Shown in pieces: positions 1-63,665 of a stretch of DNA of 64,000 nucleotides. Origin of the DNA: Vermamoeba vermiformis. Lineage: Eukaryota. Below the pieces are notes generated by a model. It did no database searches and was not told where the DNA came from. It saw nothing but the letters and a program-made list of their open reading frames with translations. Location of the stretch: NCBI GenBank assembly GCA_045837725.1, contig JBEWZL010000127.1:62001-126000 (forward strand). The letters run 5' to 3'. Position numbers and translations under genes: made by a program. The first letter of the stretch is position 1; each line of letters starts with the position of its first letter.

Positions 1-1990
1 ACCAAATGGAATCAGCAAGCACAGCTGAAAAGAAATCTAGACGAGAGGTATGCTTGGATCATGGTTATTTTTGAAAGATCTGAAATTTATCGTTAATCCG
101 TTCTTCAGAGCTTGCACGAAAAAGCCACCGTGTTCTTCGATAAATTGAAGCGCAGATTGTCTTTGAAGAGTCTTAGACCAAAAGAGGCAAAGAAGAGCGT
201 AAGTAACTCTTTCGAGTTAATTAGTAGTCGTACTAAGTACATCCGCAGACCAAAGTGTTCGGAGAGCCGTTGCTTTCTGTTCTTGTTAACCAACGTCGTT
301 CTGGTATCTTCGAAGATATTCCTTACCTCGTAAACAGATGCTTGCACCATTTACTTCCGAAATATGGTACGTTTTTTTACTTTTTGATCCGACCAGATGC
401 TCATCTCCAAACAGTTGGCGAAGAGGGCTTGTTTCGCGTCTCTGGCAATCACGAGGATTTGAATAACCTCAAAACAGATATCGATGAAGGTATGTTCATT
501 ATTACCTTTTGCAATAGCACTTCTAACGATGCTCGACAGCTCGTCAAGTGGACTGGGATCAGATCAGCAGCCCTCACTTGGTTGCATGTTTGTTAAAGCA
601 GTATGTCAGAGAGCTTCCTACACCCCTCATTCCTAATGGCAAGGAAATGATGGAGGTAATCGGTACGTTGCGTGCTATTTTCCAACCGAACGTAAACTGA
701 CCCTAATACAGGCACCGAAGACGCAGACATCAAGAGACAGCGCTTGTTCGATGCAGTGTCCAAGATCCCTCCTCCCGAGTTGGCTGTTCTGCGTCGTTTG
801 GTCGAGGGCTTTGCTAAGATCCACGACGCAAGAGACCGCAACAGAATGGATGCGCACAACCTTGCTCTTGTCTGGTCACCCACTCTGTTCAGATTTGATG
901 AGCAATTGACTCCCGAACAACTGCTCAAGAGTGCACACAACAATGTGCAAGCTGAAGTGATTGAAGCATTGATCCTCGATCATTCCTTCTACTTTGTCCC
1001 TCGCCCTGAAGAGAAGGCATTCGCGGACCTGCAAGCCAATCTCACACTCGAATCAGCTCTGTTCGATCAGTTAGATGACAGCGAGACAGAGACCGAGTTC
1101 AAGAAGCGCCGTAGAATGAGTGTCATGACTCTTGGCATGTCTTCTCCGCGATTCAGCGATGCAGGACTTCCTAGGTATGCATTGGTTGCTTTTCTGATAA
1201 CTTAACTAACGATTTGACAGCGAACCTTCACGAATGTCGATTGATGGTTTTGCATCTCCACGTATGACTGACGAAGCTTCCATGAGCGAAACTTCAGCCC
1301 GAGGACGAAAGCGAAGAAAGCTTGAACGTCAAACCTCCGAGAAGAGAATTCGTGGTACTGTTAAAATGATCTACTACACTGAAAAGAAGAGATCTCTTTA
1401 TGATTACTTCCAGTACGTACACTAGGCCTCGTCTTAAAACTAGCAACTAACAATCTGTACAGACGAGCTTCTTGTTTAGAGAATGCACAAGTTTATGCTG
1501 AGGGTGCCCTCTCACTTGAACAGGCTATGCAAACGCTACAAGGCTGCTCTATTTTGTACCGAAGCATAAAGAAGAATGGCAAGTATGAGGTAAGCGTCAG
1601 TGGCGAGACTAAGTCGGAGTCGAAAAACGCTTCCAACAAGCCAGCGTAGCTCAGTTGGTTAGAGCGTTGGATTCATAACCCAGAGGTCGTGAGTTCGAGC
1701 CTCACCGCCGGCAGTAATTTTTTTTGCTTTTTGTCCAAGCGACCTTTCTTTTCGGCAAGCTTTCAGTATCTTATTCTAGGCAATGCAGACTAATATATTC
1801 TTATTAACCGAACAATTTATTGCAGAGCGCCAAAATTAATCACAAACAAGAGGCGGAACTGAAGCATCACCTCATATGCAAGAAAACTGGTCAAATTTAT
1901 GGACCTATCGTTGTTGTAGCAAGAGAAGACGGTATTATGGGCGTAATTGGCCATGACAAGGACTTGATCCGCAAGATCCTTTTCGATTGA
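1..1990 (+). CDS. RhoGAP-domain protein, 5' partial, multi-exon, with a C-terminal extra domain
   Basis: RhoGAP motifs VFGEPL, EEGLFRVSG (arginine finger), LVACLLKQYVRELPTPL and NRMDAHNLALVWSPTL. Splicing introns 1414-1462 and 1590-1825 extends the frame to TGA at 1988-1990. Confidence 0.9.
1595..1748 (+). repeat. Left arm of ~155-bp inverted repeat (tRNA-Met cassette with flanks); partner at 2982-3136
   Basis: cgtcagtgg..taagtcggagtcgaaaaacgctt.caacaa-[tRNA]-gtaattt..gctttttg.ccaagcgacctttc matches the reverse complement of 2982-3136. The tRNA body is identical and the flanks differ at a few positions. Confidence 0.97.
1640..1713 (+). tRNA. tRNA-Met(CAT), elongator type, inside RhoGAP intron 1590-1825
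   Basis: Cloverleaf: acceptor GCCAGCG/CGCCGGC plus discriminator A, D-arm GCTC/GAGC, anticodon loop TTCATAA, T-arm GTGAG-TTCGAGC-CTCAC. G1-C72 and a TTC T-loop indicate elongator rather than initiator. A T8 run (Pol III terminator) follows at 1718-1725. Confidence 0.93.
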
Positions 1991-2047
1991 ACTTCTGGTT
2001 GGCATTGGACGCCACTCAGAGGTTGCTTGTATCGTACTGTAGATAAA

Positions 2048-5000
2048 TTATTCGCTATTTTCCATAATTTCCTCTAAGTGGGCCAAGGCTTCTTCTAACA
2101 ATTTGATCTCGAAGCGGTACAGGATCTTCTTGCGTGACATGTCGCAATTACATCGCTGAAAAGTTGTTGGTTAGTAACGTAGAACAAATTCCGAGTAAGT
2201 GGAGGCTTAATACGTACACCCTCTGCATGGCTCAAACAGAATGAGATGGCGTTGTTGCAGTCACAAACGACACCGCTGACGTAACAGTCAAAGCCACAAA
2301 TGTCACATTGTTTGCACTCCTCTTTCAGTTGTTTTGTAGTCAAAGGAACAATGCGCGTGATGCCAGCCTTCTGAAGTCTTTGTCGATCTTCACGTTCCGA
2401 TTTCAGGATGCGTTCTAGCTCGGTCTTGATCCTTGGTCGGAAGTCTGCAAGATCGTACGGTGCAATTTGCTCCGTTTTCTTTTCTGAGCCGTCCTCATCT
2501 TCGCTTGCAGTATCGTCACTTGACTCAGCTTCTTTAATGAGATCTAATGCAGCAGAGATGACAAACTCCGCGTGTGGGAACACAGAACTGCGCTTGAATC
2601 TGTACATTTCGACTGCTGTGCGGCCCTGTTCTATCCAATCGGGCAGAGCGAAGTTGACACTTTCAGCACAATTGAACTGATAAAAATTGTCAGTCGTGTC
2701 TCTCAACATACACGAGTTGTCAAAAGATCTTACTCCTTGGTTGAATCCAGCGTGATAAGCATTGGGGAAGGTAATAACGAACTCGCCTGCATTCTGAATT
2801 GTACGCACGACTGGAATGCCGTTGGCTTGTAAAATACGCGGGGATAACATGGTGATCAGCATGTGGAGCAGATTCGGGTGCTTCTCAAACAGATCTGGCA
2901 TAGTCTGCTTCATTACTTCCTCAAATTTGGCAGCGTAGCGACCAGAGACACCATACCTGCAAGAATAATCAGCACAGAAACGAAAGGTCGCTTGGGCAAA
3001 AAGCAAAAAAAAATTACTGCCGGCGGTGAGGCTCGAACTCACGACCTCTGGGTTATGAATCCAACGCTCTAACCAACTGAGCTACGCTGGCTTGTTGAAA
3101 GCGTTTTTCGACTCCGACTTAATGTCCCCACTGACGACAACGGTAACTTACCAGTTCTTCGGCTTTCCCATGTGCACGTAATTGATGCTGTATAGCAGAT
3201 TGTCTTCGGTGTGCCAACAGAAGGAGCTGAATAGCATTCCCACGTACATCATCGGTCGTGTTACTCCGGAGATGTTTTGTCGCAAGTGTTTGAGGGCGGA
3301 GACATACGGCAGATTGTTCAAGTTCCAACCACTTTTTGCCATTGCTTCAGCGGTGGCATCTCTGATGAATTGACCTTTGGTTTTCAGTGCTCTGGCACGA
3401 ACGGGCTCTGCAGCGCTTTGAGTGTCCAAAGGGAAACCAGAGCAGCCGTGCTCATGGACGTCGACATCCGAACCATAATAAACGACGACTCTATCGTCCG
3501 TGCCTTCGACAATTCTCCAGTATTCTTTTTCTACAATGTTTGGATCGACCCAATCTTTGACTTTCGCTTGCTTTCGTACTTGCTTCTTGAACATTTTGTC
3601 GTTATCGTCGTCCTCATCATCGGACTCTTCAGATTCATAAGGAACTCCAAACCAGTTGCACTCGAATTGTCTTGCCATTCGCTCGAATTGAGTTAAAGTG
3701 TATTGCTTGCCCATGTCATAACCGTACTCTAACTCTTCGCGTTCTTCTTCGGTTGCTTTGACGCACTTTTCACATAACCATTCGCCTTTAGGAACTCGAG
3801 CTAATGGCGGGTCCATGCAGTGAATGTGAGTACCTCTGTTGCAATTATTGTCACAAACGACCAATTTGTCCGGTCTGTCTCCACGTCCGCAAACTGTGCA
3901 CGTGACATCTTCGATCGTGGCTTTCAAATTATGACCAAATGATTGCAATTTGATATCTTTCCAATCGCTGGATGTCATTGGATGAGTGCGAGTGCCATAA
4001 CTTTTAATTCCACGTGCGCCTGAAAATGACAATTGCGTTGCTTTTGGTTTCGTGTCACGTTCCTTCACTTGCTTTGGCTTTAATCGTTGTCTCTCCTCGT
4101 ATATTGCATCAGTGTCGTTGATTTCTTGTAAAAAACCTTCCATTTCCTTTTCATTCTCTACAAAATCTTTCAAGCAGTTTTGATAACTACGTCGCAAGGT
4201 AGCAATAACAGTTGAATTGCAATATGGTAATCGAAGGCCTGTTGCGACGTCATTCCATCGATTATCATTCTCAACCTGTAATAAAATAACGTTTTAGACT
4301 GAATTCTGTGGATTATAAAAACTGTGGCTTTACCTTATCAAAACCTCCGATATTACGAATCTCTAAATGCAAGCGATATAAATCCACTTCAACGCCGTCT
4401 ACAGTGTATGTCTTGAGAGTACGCTTGCCTTTTTCTTCGAGCATAAATCGCTTCAATCTTTTGTAGAAGATCACGTTGTGGCCTCGTCGTTTTTGCATTT
4501 GGTGAACGTTCTGTGCCTTGGTAACGAACTTGAATTTGTTTGGGTTCACATTCTTGAAAAAACATTCAGTATCCCATTGGCCTCCGTCTTCTTTCTTTGG
4601 AGGAACGATGCGGCAAATCCCGTACGGCTCGACTAGATGAGCAATGCTTTTGACATATCTAACAGGATTTGCAAACTGTTCTGGCGTTGGATAGAACACT
4701 GGGGCTTCCTTAATATCGAATAGCGGGTCTATAGAAATTATTTTCAGTCGAGTTTCAAATTTCATTAATCATAATACCGAGCTTTTTTGACAATAAACCG
4801 AAAATATTATGGCCTGTTTTAAAAAAGTAAATATATTTACCTTCTTTTTTGCCTTGGGTCTTTTGATGAGCTGAATTCTTTGGGGTGTTATTGATCGGAT
4901 TTGAAGTTCTCGGGATTCGGCATGGGCATCCACCCTTTCAGCTGTCAAATCTATTGTTTCCACTTCATCTTTTATATTAACAACTTTTCGGCGCTTATTG

Positions 5001-5089
5001 GGACCTGTTTCTAAACCCTCTTCGCTTTTTCTCTTCGTCGAAGATCTTGTTTGATACCCTTGAGGGTAATTGAGTATTTCCACATCCAT
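2048..5089 (-). CDS. KDM5: KDM5/JARID1-family histone H3K4 demethylase (JmjN-ARID-PHD-JmjC-C5HC2 zinc finger)
   Basis: JmjN APVFYPTPEQFANP..GICRIVPP, ARID VDLYRLHLEIRNIGG, PHD CTVC..CDNNC..H..C..WLCEKC, JmjC FCWHTED...YHAGFNQGFNCAESVNFA with the Fe ligands intact, and a C-terminal CDIC..C..CDC..CLSH finger. Confidence 0.95.
2982..3136 (-). repeat. Right arm of tRNA-cassette inverted repeat
   Basis: Reverse complement of 1595-1748 with a few substitutions and indels in the flanks. Confidence 0.97.
3018..3091 (-). tRNA. tRNA-Met(CAT), identical copy inside KDM5 intron 2957-3151
   Basis: Exact reverse complement of 1640-1713. It lies in an intron (gtaagt...ttgcag) that splits the JmjC W codon in KPKNW|YGVSG, and is followed by a T9 terminator. 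Confidence 0.93.
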
Positions 5090-5205
5090 CGGACGAGAAA
5101 AGAATTGGCCTATTTTTGTTGAGTTGTGGTAATGTGCTGTTATAGTGTTGCGGGTTGAATTATTGAGTTCCGTGTGTGCGACTTCGTTTTTTTTCTGAAA
5201 GCACG

Positions 5206-6892
5206 ATGCCATTCATGAAACACGGCAAGGTACACGACTGCAAGGCGATGGACTTGAAATAGTAATACTACTACTACGCCTGCACTGCTACTGGGGTCAG
5301 AGAGTTGCACACCCCGAAAACGATGAAGCAAACCTTGATAGCTATGAAGTCGCGCAGAGAGGCATTGCAACCGCTCTGTGTACAAGCGAGAAGCAACTCG
5401 TATCATAGTCCGGCTATTAAACAAAATTCTGATGACAGCTCCTAATTTGGTTAACTCAGACGAAGGACCTCCTTTCTATTGCGATAAATGTGCAAGAGTT
5501 TCCATTCGTACTGAATGTATTATAAGCAGTCGTCTGGCAAGGTAGGTTCTCTTGTTTGTTCAAGATTTTCCGCCCATGGGGCTGATTTATTCTGTCAAGA
5601 GCGATATTTTATCCAGCAGTCTGTTTGTTCGTGCACTGATGACGCAAGCTAGCTGGAGTATTAGTCCTCGCATTGGCGAGTTCACTAGGGAAATAGTACC
5701 CGTGGAAGAGATACAGACCTTCTACTGCTTGGATCAGGTGGCCATCCCTGACGATAGACCCTACGCGTGGAGCAACACAGTTGCAACCCTGGACGGCGTT
5801 ATCGGGTATATAATTTAGAAAATTATTTGATCATTAAATGTTCTCTTAGGAGCCTAATTATTAAATTCCAACGTCATAAGATCGTGACAGCGTTTTCGAA
5901 GTTTCTAGGTCAAACTAACCGTATCTTCTAGAACTCGAGAGCCTGGAACTACAGGCGGTAAAGAAATATCCTTAGGGCACATCCCTTACAGTGGATCAGG
6001 TTCAGATTGGCGTATTTTGAACGCAGGCAAGTTTAAACAAATATCGCTAGCCTGTTGACTGATCAATTTTCTTTATCAAGGATGGGCGCACGCAGACGCT
6101 GTTCTAGCTTCAGGCGCCGAAGTGCGTGAAGAGCCTGACGGTTGCGTGTTTTACAACCAGTTCGATGATCTGCAACAGTTTCGTGAAGAAGTGCTCAAAC
6201 GAAGCAAATACCCTCTTAAAGTTGTAGTTACTAGGACTGGCGATTTACCTTTAACTCATCCACTATTTGTACATGCACCTCTGCGAAAAATCCTCGCGAC
6301 AACACAAAAGGGCGCGACAAGTCTGTTTGAACAGGCGAGAAAGCTTTTAAATATGCAAAGGTAAGCTTAAACAAGTATTTAAGAGCTATGCTTATGGATT
6401 GTTAGTGCGAGCGAAGAGGAACTTCGAACAACAATTGAAAACAAATGGCTGACACGATTAATGATTTTTGAAGACAAACACAGCGGTGTAGATTTAGTAG
6501 CACTGCTCAAACACTTGCGACAACACGAGGGTGTGAGATATTTGGTACGGAGATTCGAAAGTTACTAATCGATAGACCATTAACCGATATTTAACAGGAC
6601 GTCTCTTGCGGCTCGTCAATGATTTCGCAATTAATTAAGCTGTAAGGCATCTCACATTTAATGTAGAAATGGCTAACAATGTTATTATAGGAAACTATTA
6701 GACGAATACCGTATGACGAAGAGCGGCTGCGTCTTAGGACATTTCAGCACGACAGGACAGCCTCGCGTCCTTCAATTTGATCCCAACCTCGGTTTTGGTT
6801 TGGACAACTCACCGCTATTACACTTCAAGGCTGTCAGGATCTACGGCGAACATCACATGTTTGTGCGAGGAGTGTGGCAGTATCGCCATTGA
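5206..6892 (+). CDS. RibD C-terminal / dihydrofolate-reductase-family (pyrimidine reductase-like) protein, multi-exon; start uncertain (ATG 5206, 5432 or 5639)
   Basis: Exons give RPYAWSNTVATLDGVIG, ADAVLASGAEVR, PLKVVVTRTGDLPLTHPLF, VDLVALLKHLRQHEGVRYL and LLDEYRMT. These match the RibD_C pattern RPYV..N.VSSLDG / ADAILVGAGT.R / VVTRSGDL / VDL..L..L..GV..L / LVDE..LT. TGA at 6890-6892. Confidence 0.75.
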
Positions 6893-30417: not shown

Positions 30418-33400
30418 ATGCGAAAAAATTCGATCAAGGAGGTCTCGCAATTATGCGAGGGCTCTCCGACGAATAGGTATGACAATTTATATTGTTGTAT
30501 CGCGATTGTTTACACGTACTTTTTAGCTATTTAATTGCTGAAGAAAAGACCTGGATCACTCACGAGACTTGGATCGACGAAGAAGAGACCACCCGCCGAA
30601 GTCTATTAGTAAACAATAGTGATTTATATAATTTAAAATCCGAAGCACAAAAGTGCGAAGATGAATGGCAGCGAAAAGGACAGGAACGCTGCATCCAGAA
30701 GCGGTTACTGATCGCGAGCGCGCTTGGTCTTGAAGACGCAGTCGAGCGATTGGTTCAATCGGGTGCCGATCCATGCTTTAAACAGAACAAGTTCGGATTC
30801 AGGTACGCGGCTGTCTATTAATATAAATTTCTCTAAAAGGAAAGACTGGCGGTTCGTGATCTGCCAATGTTTTTCAAACTTTTTCTAACTCGTATTGACG
30901 TACTTTACAGCGCACTGAACTTTGCCGCAAGTACGCGACAACTGGTGTCGTTGTTGAATTTAATGAAGAAAAGGAAAATCGCGGATGTGGATGCTTCAAT
31001 TGAAAGCTCCAAGTATCAGTACAACCCCTTAGATCTGTTGTACATTGAGCTCAGTCATAGATTGTATGACAAACACGACGACGACATACATTTGAGTGAG
31101 TTATTCAGCTTTGGCGATGGCTCTCACTTCCAGTTGGGTCACGGTGATTCGATGCCGCGACAAATTCCTAAAAAGGTTAAAGCCCTCGATGGCGAGGACA
31201 TAGCCGTGCTCTCATGCTCTGACGTGCACTCTGCCATTCTCACTAGCAATGGCAAGTTGTACACATGGTACGTGAAACAACCAGCGCAATTATGGTCGAG
31301 TGGACTAACCTTTCACTGAACAGGGGCAAAGGAGACATGAAGACGCACGAGTTCTCCAAGCTCGGTTACGAAGACGTGGCAGTACAAGTAACGCCGCGTC
31401 AGATTATGAACAGCGTTACTTGCGTTGATGTCGCCACGAGCAACAATCACACAGCTGTTGTGACCAATGACGGTTCATTATTCACTTTTGGTAAGCTTTT
31501 CTGCTGCTTTAGTGTCCGGTAGAAGGGTCATAATAATTTTCTAATTCAGGTCAAGGAGCTGATGGCCATCAGTTGGGTCACGGCAAGGCAGAACTCGAGT
31601 CACCTATCAAACGAGTTCTCGCTCTCAAGACTAAGGTGGTCACTAATGTTGCGTGTTCTGACAATCACACGGTGTGTCTGACGAGTGACGGACAAGTCTA
31701 CACTTTTGGACGAGGCTCTCATGGACAGCTGGGCCACACTTTGTTCCAAAACGAACATACCCCGCGATTGGTACGTAAATTTATTTGTTAACTTAATGAT
31801 GGGGCTAATTGATACCTTAGGTATCCTCTTTGACCAATCTTATCGTCAAATCAATTAGCTGTGGCCCGAACATGACAGCTGCACTCACGGAGCACGACGA
31901 TGTTTACTATTTTGGCAATGGAAATCCTCGTCCTGAACGAGTGGTGTTCCAGTTCTCAAATGGTCAGACTGGCTACGTGAGCATCTTCCGCAAGTGCAAG
32001 ATTAAACAAGTGGTGTGCGATGAGAACCACATCCTCGTGTTGACTACCTCAGGCGAGCTCTATGTATTCAATCCAAAGGACATTCGCAAATCTACTGGCG
32101 GTCAGCAGCCAGCGCGATTGTTGAACATCAACGAGAAGAAGATTGCGTACGTGGAGGCCAACAATAACCAAGCCGTGGCCTTAAGTGAACACGGCGAAGT
32201 TTATCAGTGGAGTCTCACGGACGATGACAAAAAAGTGAAGCCACAGCGCATTTTGCTTGGCTGGCGCGTCAAGAAAATTAAGCGCAGCAAACAGCACACA
32301 CTGTTAGTGGTTGATAGAGCACTGCCAGTGTCTCACCGGATGTTCCAAGCCGCTTGCAAGAGCCTTGTAGAGCCTGACGAGGCATCAGCAGACCTCGAGC
32401 CTCAGTTTGCTGATTTGAAAGTCTCTTCAGGAGACTTGCCTGAACTAGACAAAGACGAGGAGTTATTAGAGATTGAAGATCTGGAAAAGCGTTATGGAAG
32501 TCCACGCGAAGAAGATGTTGAATACGACATTCCAGAGATCTCTCGCAAGTCTTTGATTGAAGATTTGACCGATCTGTTGGACGACAAGGCCACAGCTGAC
32601 GTCGCTTTTGTGATGGCACCAAAGCCTGTTGAAGGAGATGCGTCACCATCGTCAGATCAGATTGCTGTAGTTCAAGCTCATCGTGTCATCCTGTCACGTC
32701 ACCCACACTTTGCAGCGTTGTTCAAAAACAACCAACAGCGATGCGATCGCTTGAAGACACTACTGCAACGAATTCCAACCAACCAACTGGGCATAGACCG
32801 AGACAAGGCGACTGTTCTCTTGGTTGAAGTTGACACGAAAGAAGATGTCGAGGCATGCCAGTGCGCGATGATTGCACTTGTCAATTATCTCTATGGCAAT
32901 GAACTCAATATGTTCTGTGCTCGCAAAGGACTCTCCAAAGAGCTTAAGAAGCAGATCAAGAAGCAGCTCTTGGACCTGGCCATTCAGTTCAATGTCAGTC
33001 ACGTTATGAAGTCGCTAGGCCATCACGTGCGTGGCACTCAATACGTGGAACTGGCACCATTGACTGAGCATTTACGACATCAACTCAATGCTGCTAATAG
33101 CAACCAAGCTGGCAACTTGGCAGACTTGAAGATCATCGTTGAAGGGCGTGAAGAGGTCAAGGCTCACAAGTCCATTGTGTCGACGCGCTGCCAGTACTTC
33201 AAGATGTTGCTCGGAACAGAGTACAGCCATTACAAAGAGAGCTCATCAGGCCTCATTGTCATGGAAGATATTCCGCGTGAAACTCTGTTACACGTCCTCG
33301 AGTTCATTTACACTGGCCAGTTGCCTGCCAAGCTGACAATCACGCAGTTGATGAACATGATCATTGTGGCTGATCGATTGCTGCTGACTCAATTAAGCAC

Positions 33401-34743
33401 AATTAGTCAGATTGAGGTGATGAAGCAATTGGCTATTGAGAATGTCACCTCCTTGTTGGACAATGGTTTGATCTTCGGTTTGAAGTGGCTCATCAAAGGA
33501 TGCCTCGACTTCATTCTGCGCAATGTGGAAGTGATGATCCGCACGGACTGTTTGCCGTCATATTTATTTAACACCGACAATCAGTCTGCACGCCATGACG
33601 AAGAGGAACCACGTCATTTGGCGGCTAAAGAACTGACAGACGAAATAATACAACGATGCAAAGACGAGCCTTTTGAATTTTTCACGGTTGAACACAAAGA
33701 ATACATTCAAAAGTTGTTGCAAGAGGTTATTGAAGAGTTAAAGGCTTCCCCAGCAAAGAAACAACAAAATGTTAACAACAATGTCAATGGCAATTCTAAC
33801 AGCGGCAAGAAGAAGAAGCGGAAGAATAGCATGCCCAATGTCCAGCCTAATGTCCAGTCACAGCCCAGTCCCACGACCAGCATTCCAATTGAACCCAAGC
33901 TTACCGGCCAATCACCTATGAATTGCGTCTACCCCACCAAACAGCCTTCAAACTCCACCACGCGAATCTCCAACGAACGGCACATCGCGTGTACAGTCCA
34001 CTCCGCCCTTGAGTCCTACACTGCCCTCAACACCTCCTACTAAAGTGCCAGCCTCACCTCCCACTCCATGGGCCGCGAACACGGTAGCCTCGCCCCCTCG
34101 CGGTCCCTCCTTGCTCGACATTCAACGCGAGCAGTCCAAAACACCACAGCAGAACAAGACCCAGTCCACTCCTGTGCGCAAACAACCAGCCACTGCAAAG
34201 ACTAATGGGCACTCACCTACTGTCAAGAGCAACGCCAATTCACCGATCAATCGCAGCGGCGGTGATGTAGTTATTGTGACCAAGCCGCGCAAAGGCAATG
34301 CCAAACAACCAGCGAGTCCGACATCGACTTCGGGCGAGTTAAACAAGTCTGCCGAGACAAAGAGCAGTCCTTGGGGCAAGCCTACTAACGCCCCTAGTGC
34401 TCCTCAAAGTGCTGGTAAAACTTCACTGGTAGATATTCAGCGCGAAGAGCAACAGCGCAATGGTAAACCTAGTACGAACAGATCTGCCAACGGAGGAAGT
34501 GTCTGGAAACCACCACCAAAGCCTTCTAGCAACTTGACGCGCATTCAAAATGAAGAAAAGAAGAAGAAAGACCGACCAGGCCAAGGATCGGGCGTGTTCA
34601 AGTCGTTGAAAGAGATCCAAGATGAGGAAGAAGCGGTTGCACAGATCGCACTGTTTTATCAACAAAATGGCTTTGATGAAGTTACGAGCATGAAAATCGC
34701 TCGTGGCGAGATCATAGCACCCGATGAAGAACTGTATAAATAA
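30418..34743 (+). CDS. IBTK-like protein (ankyrin-RCC1-2xBTB plus low-complexity tail); apparent +1 frameshift near 33921
   Basis: Ankyrin LLIASALG..VERLVQSGAD, RCC1 FSFGDGSHFQLGHG and YTFGRGSHGQLGH, BTB VQAHRVIL and VKAHKSIVSTRCQYF. Tail motifs SLLDIQREQ and KSLKEIQDEE are typical of IBTK. Confidence 0.85.
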
Positions 34744-39258: not shown

Positions 39259-40480
39259 ATGAAACGCAAGTCAGAATATTCTAATGGTTTGTAACTCTGT
39301 AAACCACCAGCAATTTACTGATCGAATTTTTCTTCTAGACAGTTCAATAACGAAATACCCCCGGAATACCAAAGACACAACGGTACGGTTCATAATATTA
39401 TTTTTAAAATATTTATTTGTTTATTCGTAATTTTACAATTTTGATTTTTAATTTTGACACTGCCAACAGAGCTCGATCGAGTTAAATGACGTCGAGTTAC
39501 CTGATGATATGTGGACCGAGATATTGAATATCTTAGCAGTATCCATAGTACCAAAGGTTCCAGTCATCAGACTTGCATTTGTTTCTTCCACGTCGAAACG
39601 AATCTACGCACTATGTCGCAGAATCAAAGAGAGAGCCAATATTCTGCAAGTTAAAGTAGACGCAAGATCATTTTATGAAGACTTTGCAGCAAATGGCCAC
39701 TTGTCACTATTGCAATATGCTCACGAGAACGGCTGTGATTGGAATGCAGACACTTGCTCTTTAGCGGCACTGAATGGGCATTTGGAGTGCCTCAAGTATG
39801 CACATGAGAATGGCTGTGAGTGGAATGCAAATACTTGCTCTTTAGCAGCATGGCATGGGCATTTGGAGTGTCTCAAGTATGCACATGAGAATGGATGTCA
39901 GTGGAATTCAAATACTTGTTCTACAGCAGCACGGAATGGACATTTGGAGTGCCTCAAGTATGCACACAAGAATGGATGTCAGTGGAATGCAGACACTTGT
40001 GCTGCAGCAGCAGTGAATGGGCATTTGGAGTGCCTCAAGTATGCACATGAGAATGGCTGTGGTTGGGATTCAAATACTTGCACTTCAGCAGTAGTGAATG
40101 GACATTTGCAGTGCCTCAAGTATGCACATGAGAATGGCTGTGATTGGAAACCAGACACTTGCTTTTTAGCAGCATGGAATGGGTATTTGGAGTGCCTCAA
40201 GTATGCACATGAGAATGGATGTCAGTGGAATGCAAAGACTTGCTCTTCAGCAGCAGAGAGAGGACATTTGGAGTGCCTCAAGTATGCACATGAGAACGGC
40301 TGTGAGTGGAATTCAAATACTTGTTCTCTTTGGCAACACAGAATGGGCATTTGGAGTGCCTCAAGTATGCACACGAAAATAAATGTGTATGTGAGCATCT
40401 TAAGTAAAGTAGCAGTGATTTGTGGTTTACTTTTCATAAAATGCCTCAAAGCAGTGACTTTTTTTATGCTTTCAAACTGA
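39259..40480 (+). CDS. F-box-like + 27-aa ankyrin-like repeat protein (GHLECLKYAHENGC type); last repeat frameshifted
   Basis: Two small 5' exons splice in frame to give MKRKSEYSND..ELPDDMWTEIL, followed by ~8.5 repeats. A 2-nt insertion near 40326 shifts the last repeat; the corrected stop would be 40405-40407. Confidence 0.85.
39695..40386 (+). repeat. Coding tandem repeat, 81-bp unit, ~8.5 copies
   Basis: gggcatttggagtgcctcaagtatgcacatgagaatgg recurs every 81 nt. Confidence 0.95.
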
Positions 40481-56378: not shown

Positions 56379-59300
56379 ATGGAAGAAATAAACGAAAAAA
56401 AGAGAAAAATAGATAATGATGAATCAGAAGTGCATCACCCTCACAAAAAGAGAAGGATCGAGTTCGATCTGTCAACAAACATTGATCTGCCTGCAGAAAT
56501 AATGCTAGAAATATTCGAAAAATTATCTCCTGTTGATTTTAAATCTAGTTTGGAGGTTTGCAAGTACTGGTATGAATGCTCGTCAAATTTTCTCGGATGG
56601 ACGTTGGTGGGCGATGCTGATTATGGCTTGATTCTCAAATCAAATGAAATTCCTACTTACGATGCCTGTCTGGCCGATGTGCCATATTCTACTTCACAGA
56701 AGGGCTCACCCTATATTTCCTACAATACCTACCTCAAGCCTTTCTCCGTTAAATGGACTGGATCACGTACACGTAAGTTATTTTCGAAATCAAAAACGTG
56801 CTTTAATAATAACACTCCTACGTGAAGTACAACTCGTAACCGAACAAGGAACCGTTGCTGCGTCTGTTGATGTCTCTCGGCGACAAGGTCCCGTTGAAGA
56901 TTATCTGAGCGATAACGAAGCAGTCCACTGCCCCGAGTGGAGACTCGAAGCGCAGCCATATAACATTGTTAATTCGAGGGCTAATACTACGAGTCGTTCG
57001 GTGATTTTGAAGCTTTATGTCAACGTTCGAGCGTAAGTATTATAAAATACGTCATTACTGAAACCTCATTAATTTGTTCTTCTCAGTCTCGAGGCTGCTG
57101 TAATTCAGGACAAAAAGTTTCCAAAAGTCGAACTCGTCTTCAAATATGCCCTCAGCAAAGAAGTGTCGCGAGTAATTAACAAAGAGGGCCAAAGATTCAA
57201 AAAATTGACGACCGCATTAATGCCTTATGTACGTCACAGTTAATTACGAATACACGACTAATGTCTAATTCGTTAGATGCCACCAAAAATTGAACCGCCC
57301 CAAGGTCTGAAAGAAGGCTTCAAGTGGCACAGATATCAGCTCGAGTGCATCAGTTGGATGAAGTCCATTGAAGACAACGTTGACAAAGGTAAGACAAGTC
57401 GATTATAACTATCCTATTACTGACTATTACGACAAAGAGTTCAAGTACTGTGATTTGACGCCGTGGCGAGCATCACGTGCCAATTTGTTGTTTGACTTGC
57501 ACAACGAAAAGATTCTCACACCAGAAGCAGTCGATGATTACATCGGAACATTCAAGTCTCGTGGAGGTGTCCTTGCAGATGCAGTGGGACTTGGCAAAAC
57601 ACTTGAGAGTACGTGGCCTTTGAATTTCAAGTTAATGTACGCTAACACGTGACAGTGATCGGATTAGTGTTGGCCACACAAGATAAGTCATTGCCAGAAT
57701 TTGATGAAAACGGTCTGTTCAATACCAAGGCCTCTCTGAGTAAGTGAAGGCGCCTTTACGAACCTTTTTCGGTTGCTTCTGACTAACTCTCGGCAGTCAT
57801 TTGCTCGAGTCACATCGCACTACAATGGGCCTCTGAGATAGCCAAGTTCACGGACTTGAAGGTCACTCAGATAACAACGATCAAAGAAGCAACTGAAGTG
57901 ACGTACAACGATATAATCGCCTCAGGTAAGTGACAGATGTCATGCCCACGAAATTAATTATTGACGTCACTCGTTGCAGATGTTGTTATTGTCACGAATC
58001 CAATGTTAAAAAACAAGCAGTTTTTATCGCTTGGCTGTTCTAAAGCCATCGTGTCGCTTGCACCAAAAAGTTTGAAAACTCGAGCCACGTACTTGGACGG
58101 TCACTTAGAAGTAAATTCCACTTTAATAGGGAGCATATATTTGGAGCTAACGAATGATTCTTATAGGACGTGAAGAAGAAAAAAAACAAATTGCAAGTCA
58201 CTGGCCCACCACTCGACAACTTTCACTTCAGACGTGTCATAGTTGATGAAGCACACGAACTCTTCCTCGACAGTTTTACTCTTGGTACGTGCATTTGGAT
58301 TATTCTATTCACACATTGAAATAACCATTCGATAGCGTTATTGGTCAACCAAACTAAAGACTACAGTTGGTACGTAAGTGCGACGCCATTCCCGTCAGAG
58401 TAAGTACCAATTACTTCCGAAGTATATTGTTACGAGAGTGGCTAATGTCTATTAGTGGCTTGCTCGAGGCAACGAAGAAGTTCTTGGGCGTGTGGACTCC
58501 GGACTTTACATTAGGCAAGACTACCGCTGATTTGTACGAGAGGTAAGAAGAAACGATGACACGTGTCAATGTACTAATTTTTGCAGTTACGTCGAAAATG
58601 ATTTGATCATGAACAATCTGGTTTGGCGCAACACCAAAGAGAGTATTCAAGACGAATACGACGTGCCTGATTACGAAGAGGAAGTTGTGTGGGTCGATTG
58701 TCATCCGATTGAAGCTCTGTGCTACAAATGTAAGCCTATTAATTAATTACTATGGTACGCACTATTAACTCTTTAAACAGACGCCAATGTAAACAGCATT
58801 GAATATTTGACCAATTTGAATCGTTTGAAAGACGATCGTATCTATTGGATTGAAGTAAGATAAGACCCTTCGCACTCTCGTACGGAGGTAATTATAACTT
58901 GCAATTCTTACAGAACAGGATGAAATGGGGAAGAGCACTCGATAGAGATTCGCAACTGCTCAGTGAATGGAAGCGTGTGGTAAGGACGAATATATTAGCG
59001 TAATGGTAGTCTCTTTGCACGATTTATTAACGCGTTAATACATCAGCCTTACGTAGTCACGAAAAGTTCACCCAAAAAAGATCAAGAAGAGTTGAAAGTT
59101 CTCCAAGAGTACGGCAGCAAATTAAACACGATGCTCGAATGGTTGAAAGAGCGCATTGCAGAAGATGAGTCGAACAGATTTTTATTCTTTTCGAAGGTAA
59201 AAATATTTAAATTCAAAAATAGCACCGATTATAGAATGCAATATTGACACCCGTTTCCAGAGTAATGGCAATTTAGCGCGTCTGTCAAGATTGCTGGAAG

Positions 59301-59840
59301 AAAATAAGATCTCGGCTGTCAAGTTCGATGGGTAAGTTCAGTGCATATTTTTCACGCGACATTAACAGCTAACGAATCTGCGGCTAGTACTGTGACCCAA
59401 AAGGCCAAAGGGCTGAAGCAGTTCAAAGAAGAGAACGTTAAAGTGATGTTGCTGAGTCTCGTCAAGTCAGCGTCAGGACTGAACTTGATCGAAGCCAATT
59501 ACATCGTGTTGATGGATCCCATGATAGGTTCAGTCGAAGAGTCACGTGCATATGAACTGCAAGCATTGGGCAGAGCTCATCGTCAAGGACAAGACGAAAA
59601 AGTCAAGTTGATGAGGTTCTTAATGAAAAACACATTCGAAGAAGAACTTTACAACCGCAACAAATCTAACGGCAGAGGTAAAAAAATATCTCAAATTTTT
59701 CACGTAGCAAACGTGTTATTAAGATGTTCGATCAAGATTCAGAGGACCAAAAGGCTTCATTACAACGCAGTGGCAGTGCCCTTCAGTTGTTGGCCAGATC
59801 ATCGAGTGCTGCATCGTTGCGTCAAATGATGGAAAAATAA
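56379..59840 (+). CDS. F-box + SNF2-family (Rad5/16/SHPRH-like) helicase, copy 1
   Basis: F-box LPAEIMLEIFEKL..VCKYW, YQLECISWM, GGVLADAVGLGKT (motif I), RRVIVDEAHE (II), WYVSATP (III), SASGLNL, QALGRAHRQGQ (VI). Confidence 0.9.
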
Positions 59841-60028
59841 TCGGATCCGTTAACCCGCTCAAAAGAAACCTCCACCAGTTTTGTTATTATTAAACGGTAA
59901 ATTTCTTATATCATACTACTTTTACATTCGAACGCAGGGTGGCGCCAACTTCACGAGCGGTTTTTTGCAGTTTACGACAAGTTTCAGCTTTTCCCGCCGA
60001 ACTTTCCAATTTTTTACTGCAATTCAGC

Positions 60029-63000
60029 ATGGAACACAACAATAAGAAACGTAAACTTGACAGTGATGAATCAGAGGTGCATCACCCGCACAAAAAGAGA
60101 AGAATCGAGTCCGATCTGTCAACGAATGTTGTTCTGCCTACAGAAATAATGCTGGAAATATTCGAAAAATTATCTCCCAGTGATTTTAATGCCTGCGCGA
60201 AGGTCTGCAAGTACTGGTACGAATGCTCGTCAAATAATCATCAGTGGATTTACTTTGGCGAGGCTCAATACGAACTAGATCTGCGAAAAACCGAGCGAAA
60301 ATTCTACGAATCTCTTCTCGCCGACATCCCCCACCAAGTATTTGCCAAGAAATCAGTCTGTGAGACCAACTATCAAAAACCATTTTCAGTGAACTGGACC
60401 GGATCTGCATGTACGCGCCATTTTCAACATTTAACAATAATTACTTATTACTATTATTATAGTGCAAGTCATGAACGAGAAGGGTACTATTGCCACGTCC
60501 GTAAATTTCCCTTTTGGCCCGAAGTGCAATGTCAATGTCATCACAGAGTATTTGCGCGACAATATCTCCGTGAACTGTCCCGAGTGGCGAATTGATGCCT
60601 ATGCCTGCACAACATTTGACTCCTCATTTAAGACGACTAACCACTACCTCACGTTTAAACTCTACATCAACGATAAAGCGTAAGTGGATTCACATCCGCG
60701 ATCTGGCTAACGGAATTTCGTAGTCTTCAGGCCGCAGCAAATAGTGGCACCATCAGGTCATTTCCAAAATTAGAACTCATCCTCAAGTTCGGAGTCACCA
60801 GCGATGTGTGGGATTTGATCGACACTGAAATTCTGAAGTTTAAACAACGTACTAACGCACGCATTCCCTATGTACGTTATATCACCTTGTAGGCGAGTCG
60901 AGAACTAACTTGCTTCATTAGATACCGCCAAAGATGAAGGCACCCAAAGGTCTGAAAGAGGGCTTTACAGTGGCACAGATATCAACTCGAGTGCATCAGT
61001 TGGATGAAGTCCATTGAAGACAATGTTGACAAAGGTAAGACGAATCGATATAACTATTCTATTACTGACTGCTACGACAAAGAGTTCAAGTACTGTGATT
61101 TGACACCGTGGCGAGCATCACGTGCCAATTTGTTGTTTGACTTGCACAACGAAAAGATCCTCACACCAGAAGCAGTCGATGAATACATCGGAACATTCAA
61201 GTCTCGTGGAGGTGTCCTCGCAGATGCAGTGGGACTTGGTAAAACACTTGAGAGTACGTGGCCTCTCTCGTTAACTTTACATGCCCACTAACACGTGACA
61301 GTGATTGGATTGGCGTTAGCTACACAAAGCCGTAATTTACCAGAATACGACCAAAACGGTTTATTTAACACTAAGGCGTCGTTAGGTAAGCACTGGTGTG
61401 CTGTAATCGTATTCCGTTGAGTAACTAATTGTTCCTCATGCCAGTCATTTGCTCGAGTCACATCGCACTACAATGGGCCTCTGAGATAGCCAAGTTCACG
61501 CAGCTGAAAGTCACACTCGTAACAAGTGTCAAAGAGGCAACTGAAGTGACGTACGGCGATGTGATTGAATCTGGTATGTGACACGTGTCAAACACAACAT
61601 CAAGATGAAGCTAACCTGCACGACCAGACTTTGTTATCGTCGCGACATCGCTATTCAAAAACAAGTCCTATTTGTCGCTTGGTTGCGCTCAGAACATTGT
61701 GTCTCTAAGTCCTAAGCTGTTGACAGTCCGTTCTAATCACCTGGACAGCAGCTTAAAGGCACGATATTGCATCACAAGCATACGAACAAACTAACGATCT
61801 ATTTCCTAATTAGGAAGTGAAGAAAAAGAAGAACAGGCGTAGTATTGCTGGTGCTCCGCTCGATCACTTCCATTTTAAGCGAATTATTGTCGATGAAGCG
61901 CACGAAGTGTTGCTCGATCACTTCATTCTCAGTAAGTAGACGCCTTTACTTAGTAACCAGAATGACCTTATTTTAGCTCTCTTGACGAGACAAGCCAAAG
62001 ACTACTGCTGGTACGTTAGTGCCACGCCATTCGTGTCAGAGTAAGTACAATTGCACAGCTAGATTAGTCATTATGCCTGGCCACTAATTATTGTTGCACA
62101 GTCGGTTGTTCGATTCTGTGAAGATTTTTTTGGGCATTTGGCCTCCCGACTTCAAACTTCAAACAACTCTCGCTGATCTATACGAGCAGTAAGTATATAT
62201 ATATACATTTACCATATTTCTCACGGTTCACTTTGTCGCTAGTTACGTGGAGATGGATTTGATCATGAAACATCTCGTTTGGCGCAACACCAAGGAGAGT
62301 ATTCAAGACGAATATAACGTGCCTGATTATGAAGAGGAAGTCGTGTGGGTCGATTGTCATCCAATTGAAACCAAGTTCTATCAGCGTAACAGTACGACGA
62401 CTGATCGATCGACAACATTAGTGTCTTTAACAAAGTTCTAACTAAGATTCATCAGGCATCAATTGGCGAGATGGCCCTCGTTATTTAAATATACCGTTGG
62501 ATAGTTACAAAGACGATGAAATCTACCATTTGAAGGCAAGTCCGAGGTTTTCAGTTCAAAATATTTAATAATGTTTCGCAACGGCAGAGATACTACCCCC
62601 ATAAAACGAAGGAATTGGAAGCATGGTACTCTGTGGTGCGTAATTAATTATAGGTTATCGCTTTGATTTTGACACCTGTCATTTTTTTTGCAGCCGTACG
62701 TTCTGAGCTGCACGAACATAGCGTACAAAGAATTGAAAGTGCTAAACGAATATGGCAGTAAATATGCAAAGATATTAGCTTGGTTGGAAGAGCGAATCGA
62801 AGAAGATGAATCCAACCGATTTTTGTTCTTTTCAACGGTACGAAAACTCCTCTCGACAATGACTCTAATTGAATTATTTTGACTAGGAAAACACATCGCT
62901 TTGGCTATTAGGGCAAATGTTGACTGAAAATGGCATTTCTTACTCAAAATTTGACGGGTAATGTGGTGAAATTACGTAAAAATATGCTGACGCTTTCAAG

Positions 63001-63442
63001 CAATGTGACCCAAAAGGCTAAAGGCCTGAAGCAGTTCAAAGAAGATAACGTCAAAGTGATGCTGCTGAGTCTCGTCAAGTCAGCGTCAGGACTGAACTTG
63101 ATCGAAGCCAATTACATCGTGTTGATGGATCCCATGATAGGTTCGGTCGAAGAGTCACGTGCATATGAACTGCAAGCATTGGGCAGAGCTCATCGTCAAG
63201 GACAAGATCAGACCGTACGTTTAGTTAGATTTGTGCTGAAAAACACATTCGAAGAAGAGCTTTACAACCGCAACAAATCCAACGGCAGAGGTAAAATAAT
63301 ATCACATAGCAAACGTGTTATTAAGATGTTCGATCAAGATTCAGAGGATCAAAAGGCTACATTACAACGCAGTGGCAGTTCCCTTCAGTTGTGGGCTAGA
63401 TCGTCGAGTGCTGCGTCGTTGCGTCAAATGATGGAAAAATAA
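60029..63442 (+). CDS. F-box + SNF2-family helicase, tandem copy 2; +1 frameshift at ~60967 (possible pseudogene or assembly error)
   Basis: Same exon structure and motifs as copy 1. GGCTTTACAGTGG versus copy 1 GGCTTCAAGTGG adds one base and gives a premature stop near 61015. Confidence 0.85.
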
Positions 63443-63665
63443 TCGGATCTGTTGGTCAAGAAAAACTTACGCTAGCTTTTATTATTATTAAACGATAAAA
63501 TTTCTCATATTATACTACTTTTATATTCGAATTCAGGGGTGGCGCCAACTTCGTGAGCGGTTTTTTGCAGCTTCCGTTGCAACTTTTCTTTTTGTTTCTG
63601 GCCTTGCTCAGTTAGCAGGCTGTGCTTGTTTAAAATATTAGAAGCACAAATAATATTTATTTTGA

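Follow-up and report, generated by a model that had tools for sequence, protein, structure and literature searches.

The 64,000-nucleotide stretch of Vermamoeba vermiformis DNA analysed here (GenBank assembly GCA_045837725.1, contig JBEWZL010000127.1, positions 62,001 to 126,000; hereafter the window) begins with two convergent genes, one encoding a RhoGAP-domain protein and the other a KDM5/Jhd2-type histone demethylase. Each holds, within an intron and in its own sense, the same tRNA-Met(CAT) gene. Both introns are spliced, the tRNA genes lie in a block of homology that extends into the flanks on either side, and the block carries no marks of a transposon. The arrangement probably reflects local inverted duplication, at the level of DNA, of an ordinary tRNA-Met gene whose copies survive in the introns of a compact locus. 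It is a new example of the known class of nested tRNA genes, in a genome with very short introns.

Two spliced introns and their tRNA-Met genes

Contigs from four public runs were aligned to positions 1-5300 of the window, divided into 30 bins. One run supplied DNA contigs of a related strain that is about 2% diverged (X1); the other three supplied RNA contigs (X3, X16 and X17), and X3 is from a related strain in another study. A 3101-nucleotide (nt) contig of X3, spanning 1256-5128, is judged to be RNA-derived because it skips every intron of the region. Its joint 1587>1824 omits 236 nt with GT..AG ends when the cut is moved by +2, and its joint 2953>3149 omits 195 nt with CT..AC ends on the forward strand when the cut is moved by +3; with these offsets the skipped intervals are exactly 1590-1825 (intron A, in the RhoGAP gene) and 2957-3151 (intron B, in the demethylase gene). 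Since the contig skips both intervals with GT..AG ends, both are real spliced introns, and both tRNA genes are thus nested wholly inside introns. The contigs of X16 and X17 cover few bins, and neither set bridges intron A or intron B.

The host genes were named from Pfam matches on the exon translations, and the KDM5-type family also from the ESM Atlas. The RhoGAP domain lies on 696-1202 (E 3.1e-11); the gene is covered by pieces of the spliced X3 contig, and its reading frame is unbroken across intron A. The demethylase displays JmjN, ARID, PHD, JmjC, KDM5 C-helical and zf-C5HC2 domains, and its nearest ESM Atlas clusters are PHD/ARID/JmjC proteins, in agreement with a KDM5/Jhd2-type enzyme. 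Intron B interrupts the JmjC profile between positions 34 and 35, and nothing of the profile is lost.

The two introns are unusually long for this locus. Seven other introns skipped by RNA contigs within 1-5300 measure 46, 50, 57, 58, 61, 62 and 112 nt (the 62-nt value is taken from X16), with a median of 58 nt, so that intron A is 4.1 times and intron B 3.4 times the median. An earlier note on this DNA, made from the sequence alone, had described the tRNA-holding introns as about four times the usual length and had left their splicing to be checked by RNA; the description was apt, and the RNA contig skips both.

ARAGORN finds exactly two tRNA genes in the window, both tRNA-Met(CAT), and each scores 62.6 bits against Rfam RF00005, whose gathering score is 29, with model positions 1-71 fully covered. 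Both copies form a canonical cloverleaf with its anticodon in the ARAGORN prediction and in the Rfam alignment. They are identical at 74 of 74 nt, and both stand in the sense of their hosts, as the earlier note had it; the first base of the tRNA falls at intron position 51 in A and 61 in B. The G1:C72 pair and a normal T-loop mark them as presumably of elongator rather than initiator type, under identity rules that we take to apply in this organism. Two non-standard pairs are present in both copies: the acceptor stem contains A4.C69, and A31.C39 lies at the base of the anticodon stem; retention of the acceptor-stem mismatch in both is slightly unusual for a working tRNA.

The anatomy is that of a self-contained transcription unit for RNA polymerase III (Pol III). 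The D-arm and T-arm segments, to which the A and B boxes are assigned on a box consensus that we assume to hold here, agree with the tRNA consensus in the Rfam alignment. Each tRNA is followed by a run of eight or nine T residues, and a run of four to five T or more is a Pol III termination signal. With promoter and terminator intact, both copies would be expected to be transcribed by Pol III. The coordinates of these features are collected in Table 1.

Table 1. Features of the nested tRNA-Met locus (window coordinates; the strand is that of the feature)
Feature	Position	Strand	Description	Basis
RhoGAP host gene, 3' part	1..1990	+	runs off window start; stop codon 1988-1990	
KDM5/Jhd2-type histone demethylase host gene	2048..5212	-	5' limit approximate; stop codon 2048-2050	
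Intron A (RhoGAP gene)	1590-1825	+	236 nt, phase 0, GTAAGC...TTGCAG	X3 contig joint
Intron B (KDM5-type gene)	2957-3151	-	195 nt, phase 2, GTAAGT...TTGCAG	X3 contig joint
Homology block A	1595-1755	+	161 nt: 45-nt upstream flank, tRNA, 42-nt downstream flank	
Homology block B	2975-3136	-	162 nt; leaves 15 nt of intron on the 5' side and 18 nt on the 3' side (2957-2974)	
tRNA-Met(CAT), copy A	1640-1713	+	elongator-like	ARAGORN, Rfam cloverleaf alignment
tRNA-Met(CAT), copy B	3018-3091	-		ARAGORN, Rfam
A box of copy A	1647-1658	+		D-arm sequence against the assumed consensus
B box of copy A	1691-1701	+		T-arm sequence against the assumed consensus
T8 run	1718-1725	+	Pol III terminator-like, 4 nt 3' of tRNA copy A	sequence
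T9 run	3005-3013	-	A9 on the + strand, 4 nt 3' of tRNA copy B	sequence

A shared block larger than the tRNA

The homology between the two introns is not confined to the tRNA. The earlier note had proposed that a larger unit, of about 155 bp, was copied between them; the larger unit stands, but its real size is 161 nt in intron A and 162 nt in intron B, an extent on which pairwise alignment, global alignment and a repeat finder agree. The upstream flanks, of the length estimated in that note, match at 41 of 45 positions, and the downstream flanks at 39 of 42, with one indel that adds a T to the T-run. The block begins 5 nt (A) or 15 nt (B) past the first base of the intron and ends 42-43 nt beyond the tRNA, at a distance of 70 nt (A) or 18 nt (B) from the acceptor; on the downstream side homology persists for about 30 nt after the T-run. 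Block B thereby makes up 83% of intron B.

Beyond the block, the 3' tails of the two introns are unrelated, as the earlier note had it. The similarity of the 20-nt tail of intron B to the 72-nt tail of intron A is equalled in 177 of 2000 shuffles and by 12 of the 51 other intron tails that were defined by pattern. A continuation of the homology as far as the 3' splice site of intron B, hinted at by the global alignment, does not rise above chance.

Substitutions are distributed unevenly along the block, at 7 of 87 flank positions against none of the 74 tRNA positions (Fisher one-sided p = 0.012). One of the upstream substitutions is a C/T difference that lies 7 nt ahead of the tRNA and, like the length of the T-run, tells the copies apart. 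With flanks 8% diverged, the copies are not very recent. An unchanged tRNA between diverged flanks points to selection on both tRNAs, perhaps aided by gene conversion.

These differences also bear on whether one of the copies might be an artefact of assembly, given that mis-joins can yield inverted repeats. An artefactual copy would be identical to its source, whereas the flanks differ at 7 positions and by one indel. Both introns are moreover set independently by exon-exon joints of an RNA contig from another study, and X1 DNA contigs cover 30 of 30 bins, both blocks included; one of them (1707-2152) leads from within block A into the unique tail of the intron and the next exon. An artefact is therefore extremely improbable.

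The two blocks form the inverted repeat recognized in the earlier note, with arms 1266 nt apart. No inverted isoform is seen, the sole RNA contig across the locus being collinear with the window. Read in frame, an inversion between the arms would pair a phase-0 donor with a phase-2 acceptor and the reverse, leading to early stops. No design for exon swapping by inversion is apparent.

Origin of the two copies

The extent of the homology constrains the way in which the copy was made. The 45 nt of homology upstream of the tRNA and the approximately 30 nt past the T-run exclude a retrocopy, whether its source was the mature tRNA or, in the manner of a short interspersed element (SINE), a Pol III transcript. 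Because the shared sequence overruns any such transcript at either end, DNA was the template of the copy; the earlier note had already invoked the upstream flank against retroposition of a mature tRNA, and the downstream flank strengthens the argument. Transposition of a whole intron by reverse splicing is excluded as well, since only the central 161/162 nt are shared and the branch and acceptor regions are unrelated.

The explanation that we favour, and consider probable, is a local inverted duplication. Both copies would represent an ordinary nuclear tRNA-Met gene of elongator type, a self-contained Pol III unit consisting of about 45 nt of upstream sequence that may serve as the TFIIIB site, internal A and B boxes, and a T8 or T9 terminator. 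Either copy may have given rise to the other, or a third copy nearby to both, in a DNA event of short range, over about 1.3 kb, that left the product in inverted orientation; templated repair of a double-strand break and a template switch during replication are candidate events. An insert of about 160 nt would be harmless only where it is spliced out. Introns would be where the copies persist, neutral DNA being otherwise almost absent from a locus whose convergent stop codons are only 57 nt apart, and this compactness would explain the nesting without any targeting. The 3' ends of the two genes probably overlap, as the X3 contig crosses both.

It is possible instead that the 161-nt block is a mobile, intron-colonising element carrying a tRNA gene, akin to an introner, a miniature inverted-repeat transposable element (MITE) or a SINE, and inserted in the sense of the host near the 5' end of the intron. 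The earlier note had listed an element of this kind among its candidates, and the presence of one block in two unrelated introns, in sense in each and 5 and 15 nt from the donor, is what such an element would produce, as is a block that forms nearly all of intron B. The marks of mobility looked for in the block are missing, however. Its first 45 and last 42 nt do not form terminal inverted repeats (TIRs), 621 and 957 of 1000 shuffles being as good. The target-site duplications (TSDs) that the earlier note proposed to look for do not materialize: the candidate pair GGTAAGC/GGCAAGC at block A is equalled in 189 of 2000 shuffles and so lacks significance, and at block B, where 1986 of 2000 shuffles do as well, there is none. 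The donors, branch-like motifs and acceptors of both introns lie outside the shared block, which thus brings no splice signals of its own. Against dinucleotide shuffles the two introns fold no better than expected (z -0.32 and -1.0), with no extra structure joining the flanks, unlike the fungal introner-like elements described in an excerpt of PMC3609843. The repeat finder detects no third copy of the block in the window, and the homology on both sides of the transcribed unit misfits retroposition of a Pol III transcript. A mobile element is therefore unlikely. Its strongest form, a 161-nt unit that inserts copies of itself, sense-oriented, within a few nucleotides of the start of short introns and comes to constitute almost the whole intron, is decidedly so.

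The DNA contigs of the X1 strain bear on both sides of this question. The bins of the two blocks reach depths of 1463 and 987 where neighbouring bins stand near 500, and this two- to threefold excess, together with other tRNA-Met loci in the strain, could be taken as a sign of a dispersed element. A raised depth is nevertheless expected anyway, because contigs of both copies and of other tRNA-Met genes are summed there. One X1 record departs from the window into unrelated sequence at 1636, two do so at 2994 and one at 3025; the strain thus has further tRNA-Met-like loci. What these have in common with the block is the tRNA, a portion of it, or the tRNA with about 24 nt of its 3' flank, which is less than the full block. 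Among the X1 pieces displayed, a minority of the total, none is listed with a loose end at the outer borders of the block. The pattern is weak evidence for a gene family whose flank homology is eroding rather than for a uniform element. At window position 1666, a third locus in X1 has A in place of G. At several places in the locus (3135-3137, 1287 and others) paired X1 contig variants have depths that sum to the local total, for example 232 and 248 of 481 at 3135/3137, which suggests two haplotypes or a mixture of two strains.

Several points weigh against local duplication as we have framed it. Without the block, intron B amounts to 33 nt (15 + 18), whereas the shortest RNA-verified intron is 46 nt; simple insertion into a normal intron therefore fails for B, and replacement of resident sequence, later shrinkage, or creation of the intron must be added. 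Block A begins only 5 nt past the donor and both copies are in sense, which could be a sign of targeting, although chance alone would put both in sense one time in four. The count of full-block copies covers the 64-kb window only. Logan contigs, from which the X1 comparison is built, break at repeats, so that little weight attaches to the lack of loose ends at the borders of the blocks. Finally, Pol III expression of either copy is a prediction from its anatomy, and no contig of the four runs displays this organism's tRNA as RNA.

The first of these points raises the possibility that arrival of the block created intron B, in a KDM5-type gene that was previously intronless at this site. A remainder of 33 nt, below the 46-nt minimum of RNA-verified introns in 1-5300, could be so explained. 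The donor, the branch-like CTGAT and the acceptor of intron B, however, are all outside the homologous block, and no exon sequence has been consumed, as JmjC positions 34 and 35 adjoin without a gap, so that neither the shared block nor an intronised piece of exon was the source of the splice signals. It is simpler to suppose an older intron that lost sequence during templated repair or afterwards, and a gain of intron B at this site is improbable.

A different possibility is that the tRNAs are coupled to their hosts, either because RNase P and RNase Z cut them out of the pre-mRNA or of the intron after its excision, or because the folded tRNA acts as an enhancer of splicing. Since both copies are in sense, the host transcripts include the tRNA. 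For Caenorhabditis elegans, an excerpt of PMC4999229 suggests that tRNAs might be released from introns, and the tRNA starts at 51 and 61 fall within the optimum of 50-100 bp after the 5' splice site at which, in human reporters, intronic tRNA-like sequences boosted splicing most (PMC7722341, likewise in excerpt). Release from an intron would not require a full Pol III terminator or a conserved upstream region, yet both are kept, and the shared orientation has the one-in-four chance noted above. Coupling of this kind has a low probability, and local duplication of an ordinary Pol III gene remains the reading that we prefer.

Neighbouring features and relation to known systems

Words from the block were also sought in wider collections. 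In a scan of metagenomes, a 20-nt word from the upstream flank gave a single match, which is attributed to chance: it falls at 1910-1929 of a 3.2-kb contig (L001), in an unrelated coding region; the contig has no tRNA, and its ends look like adapter sequence. Prokaryote genome contigs and viral contigs, searched with 45 nt of the tRNA, yield no match, as expected for a eukaryotic gene.

Elsewhere in the window, three other features may be recorded. About nine tandem copies of an 81-nt unit occupy 39635-40408 within an open reading frame of 323 residues (39509-40480, + strand) that has ankyrin-repeat family matches; the period corresponds to 27 residues, under the usual length of an ankyrin repeat. 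A tandem duplication of about 3.6 kb (56391-59976 and 60038-63576, with 79-96% identity in blocks) carries a gene with an F-box and a helicase C-terminal domain. An intron-free reading frame of 723 residues at 31872-34043 combines RCC1-like repeats with a BTB/POZ domain.

The nested tRNA-Met genes may be compared with several known systems. tRNA-derived SINEs are promoted by Pol III, are related to tRNAs, and are dispersed through genomes, often in introns. Their copies begin at the Pol III start and lie between TSDs; a degenerate tRNA-like head is followed by a body unrelated to it and by a tail. In the present case, by contrast, the tRNA is intact, the terminator follows directly, and homology runs beyond the transcript on both sides.

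A closer formal likeness is to introners and fungal introner-like elements, in which sequence is shared among introns of unrelated genes that are longer than regular introns (PMC3609843, PMC9860276; these and the other sources cited in this section are represented by excerpts). Copy numbers of introners range from tens to thousands; the elements provide or generate splice sites, and TSDs, TIRs or stable folds are frequent among them. The fungal elements number in the hundreds, with stable predicted structures (PMC3609843). The block described here differs in having two copies in 64 kb, splice sites outside its borders, and an intact tRNA gene as cargo. Mammalian nuclear intronic mitochondrial-derived tRNAs (nimtRNAs), in turn, resemble it in placing tRNA shapes within introns, and the optimum noted above for splicing matches the two tRNA positions; they are of mitochondrial-DNA origin, however, and are reportedly not processed as real tRNAs (PMC7722341), whereas the genes in Vermamoeba resemble working cytosolic tRNA-Met genes.

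The nested tRNA genes of Caenorhabditis provide the best parallel. They too are intact Pol III genes within spliceosomal introns, about half of them in sense (PMC4999229, PMC3342880), and their internal promoter makes a tRNA gene self-contained, so that a short duplicated segment is able to persist. Of the tRNA genes of C. elegans, 44-47% are intronic and 56% of these are in sense, a share in introns that, according to the excerpt, is no more than the genome's intron share predicts; nested tRNAs are there influenced by host promoters (PMC4999229). Nested tRNA genes also turn over fast by duplication, aided by their internal promoters (PMC3342880). What distinguishes the present locus from Caenorhabditis is the shortness of its introns (median 58 nt), whose length the tRNA unit quadruples, and the position of the two copies in adjacent convergent genes as an inverted repeat. 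A limited literature search found no title or beginning of an abstract that reports such nesting in a short-intron, fungus-like genome, though this leaves its absence unproven.

If local duplication is the correct explanation, the locus offers a clean, RNA-verified case of tRNA family growth in a compact genome of short introns, in which a self-contained unit of about 160 nt was copied over about 1.3 kb and survived only where the spliceosome removes it. Because two tRNA genes in sense orientation sit in housekeeping-type genes, the pair would also be a natural test case for interference between RNA polymerase II and Pol III. Should the block prove to be multi-copy and intron-specific, or intron B to have been created by it, dispersal of tRNA genes would be linked to intron gain. 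And if the block does colonise introns, tRNA families would spread by way of introns, and the supply of a tRNA might follow the transcription of its hosts.

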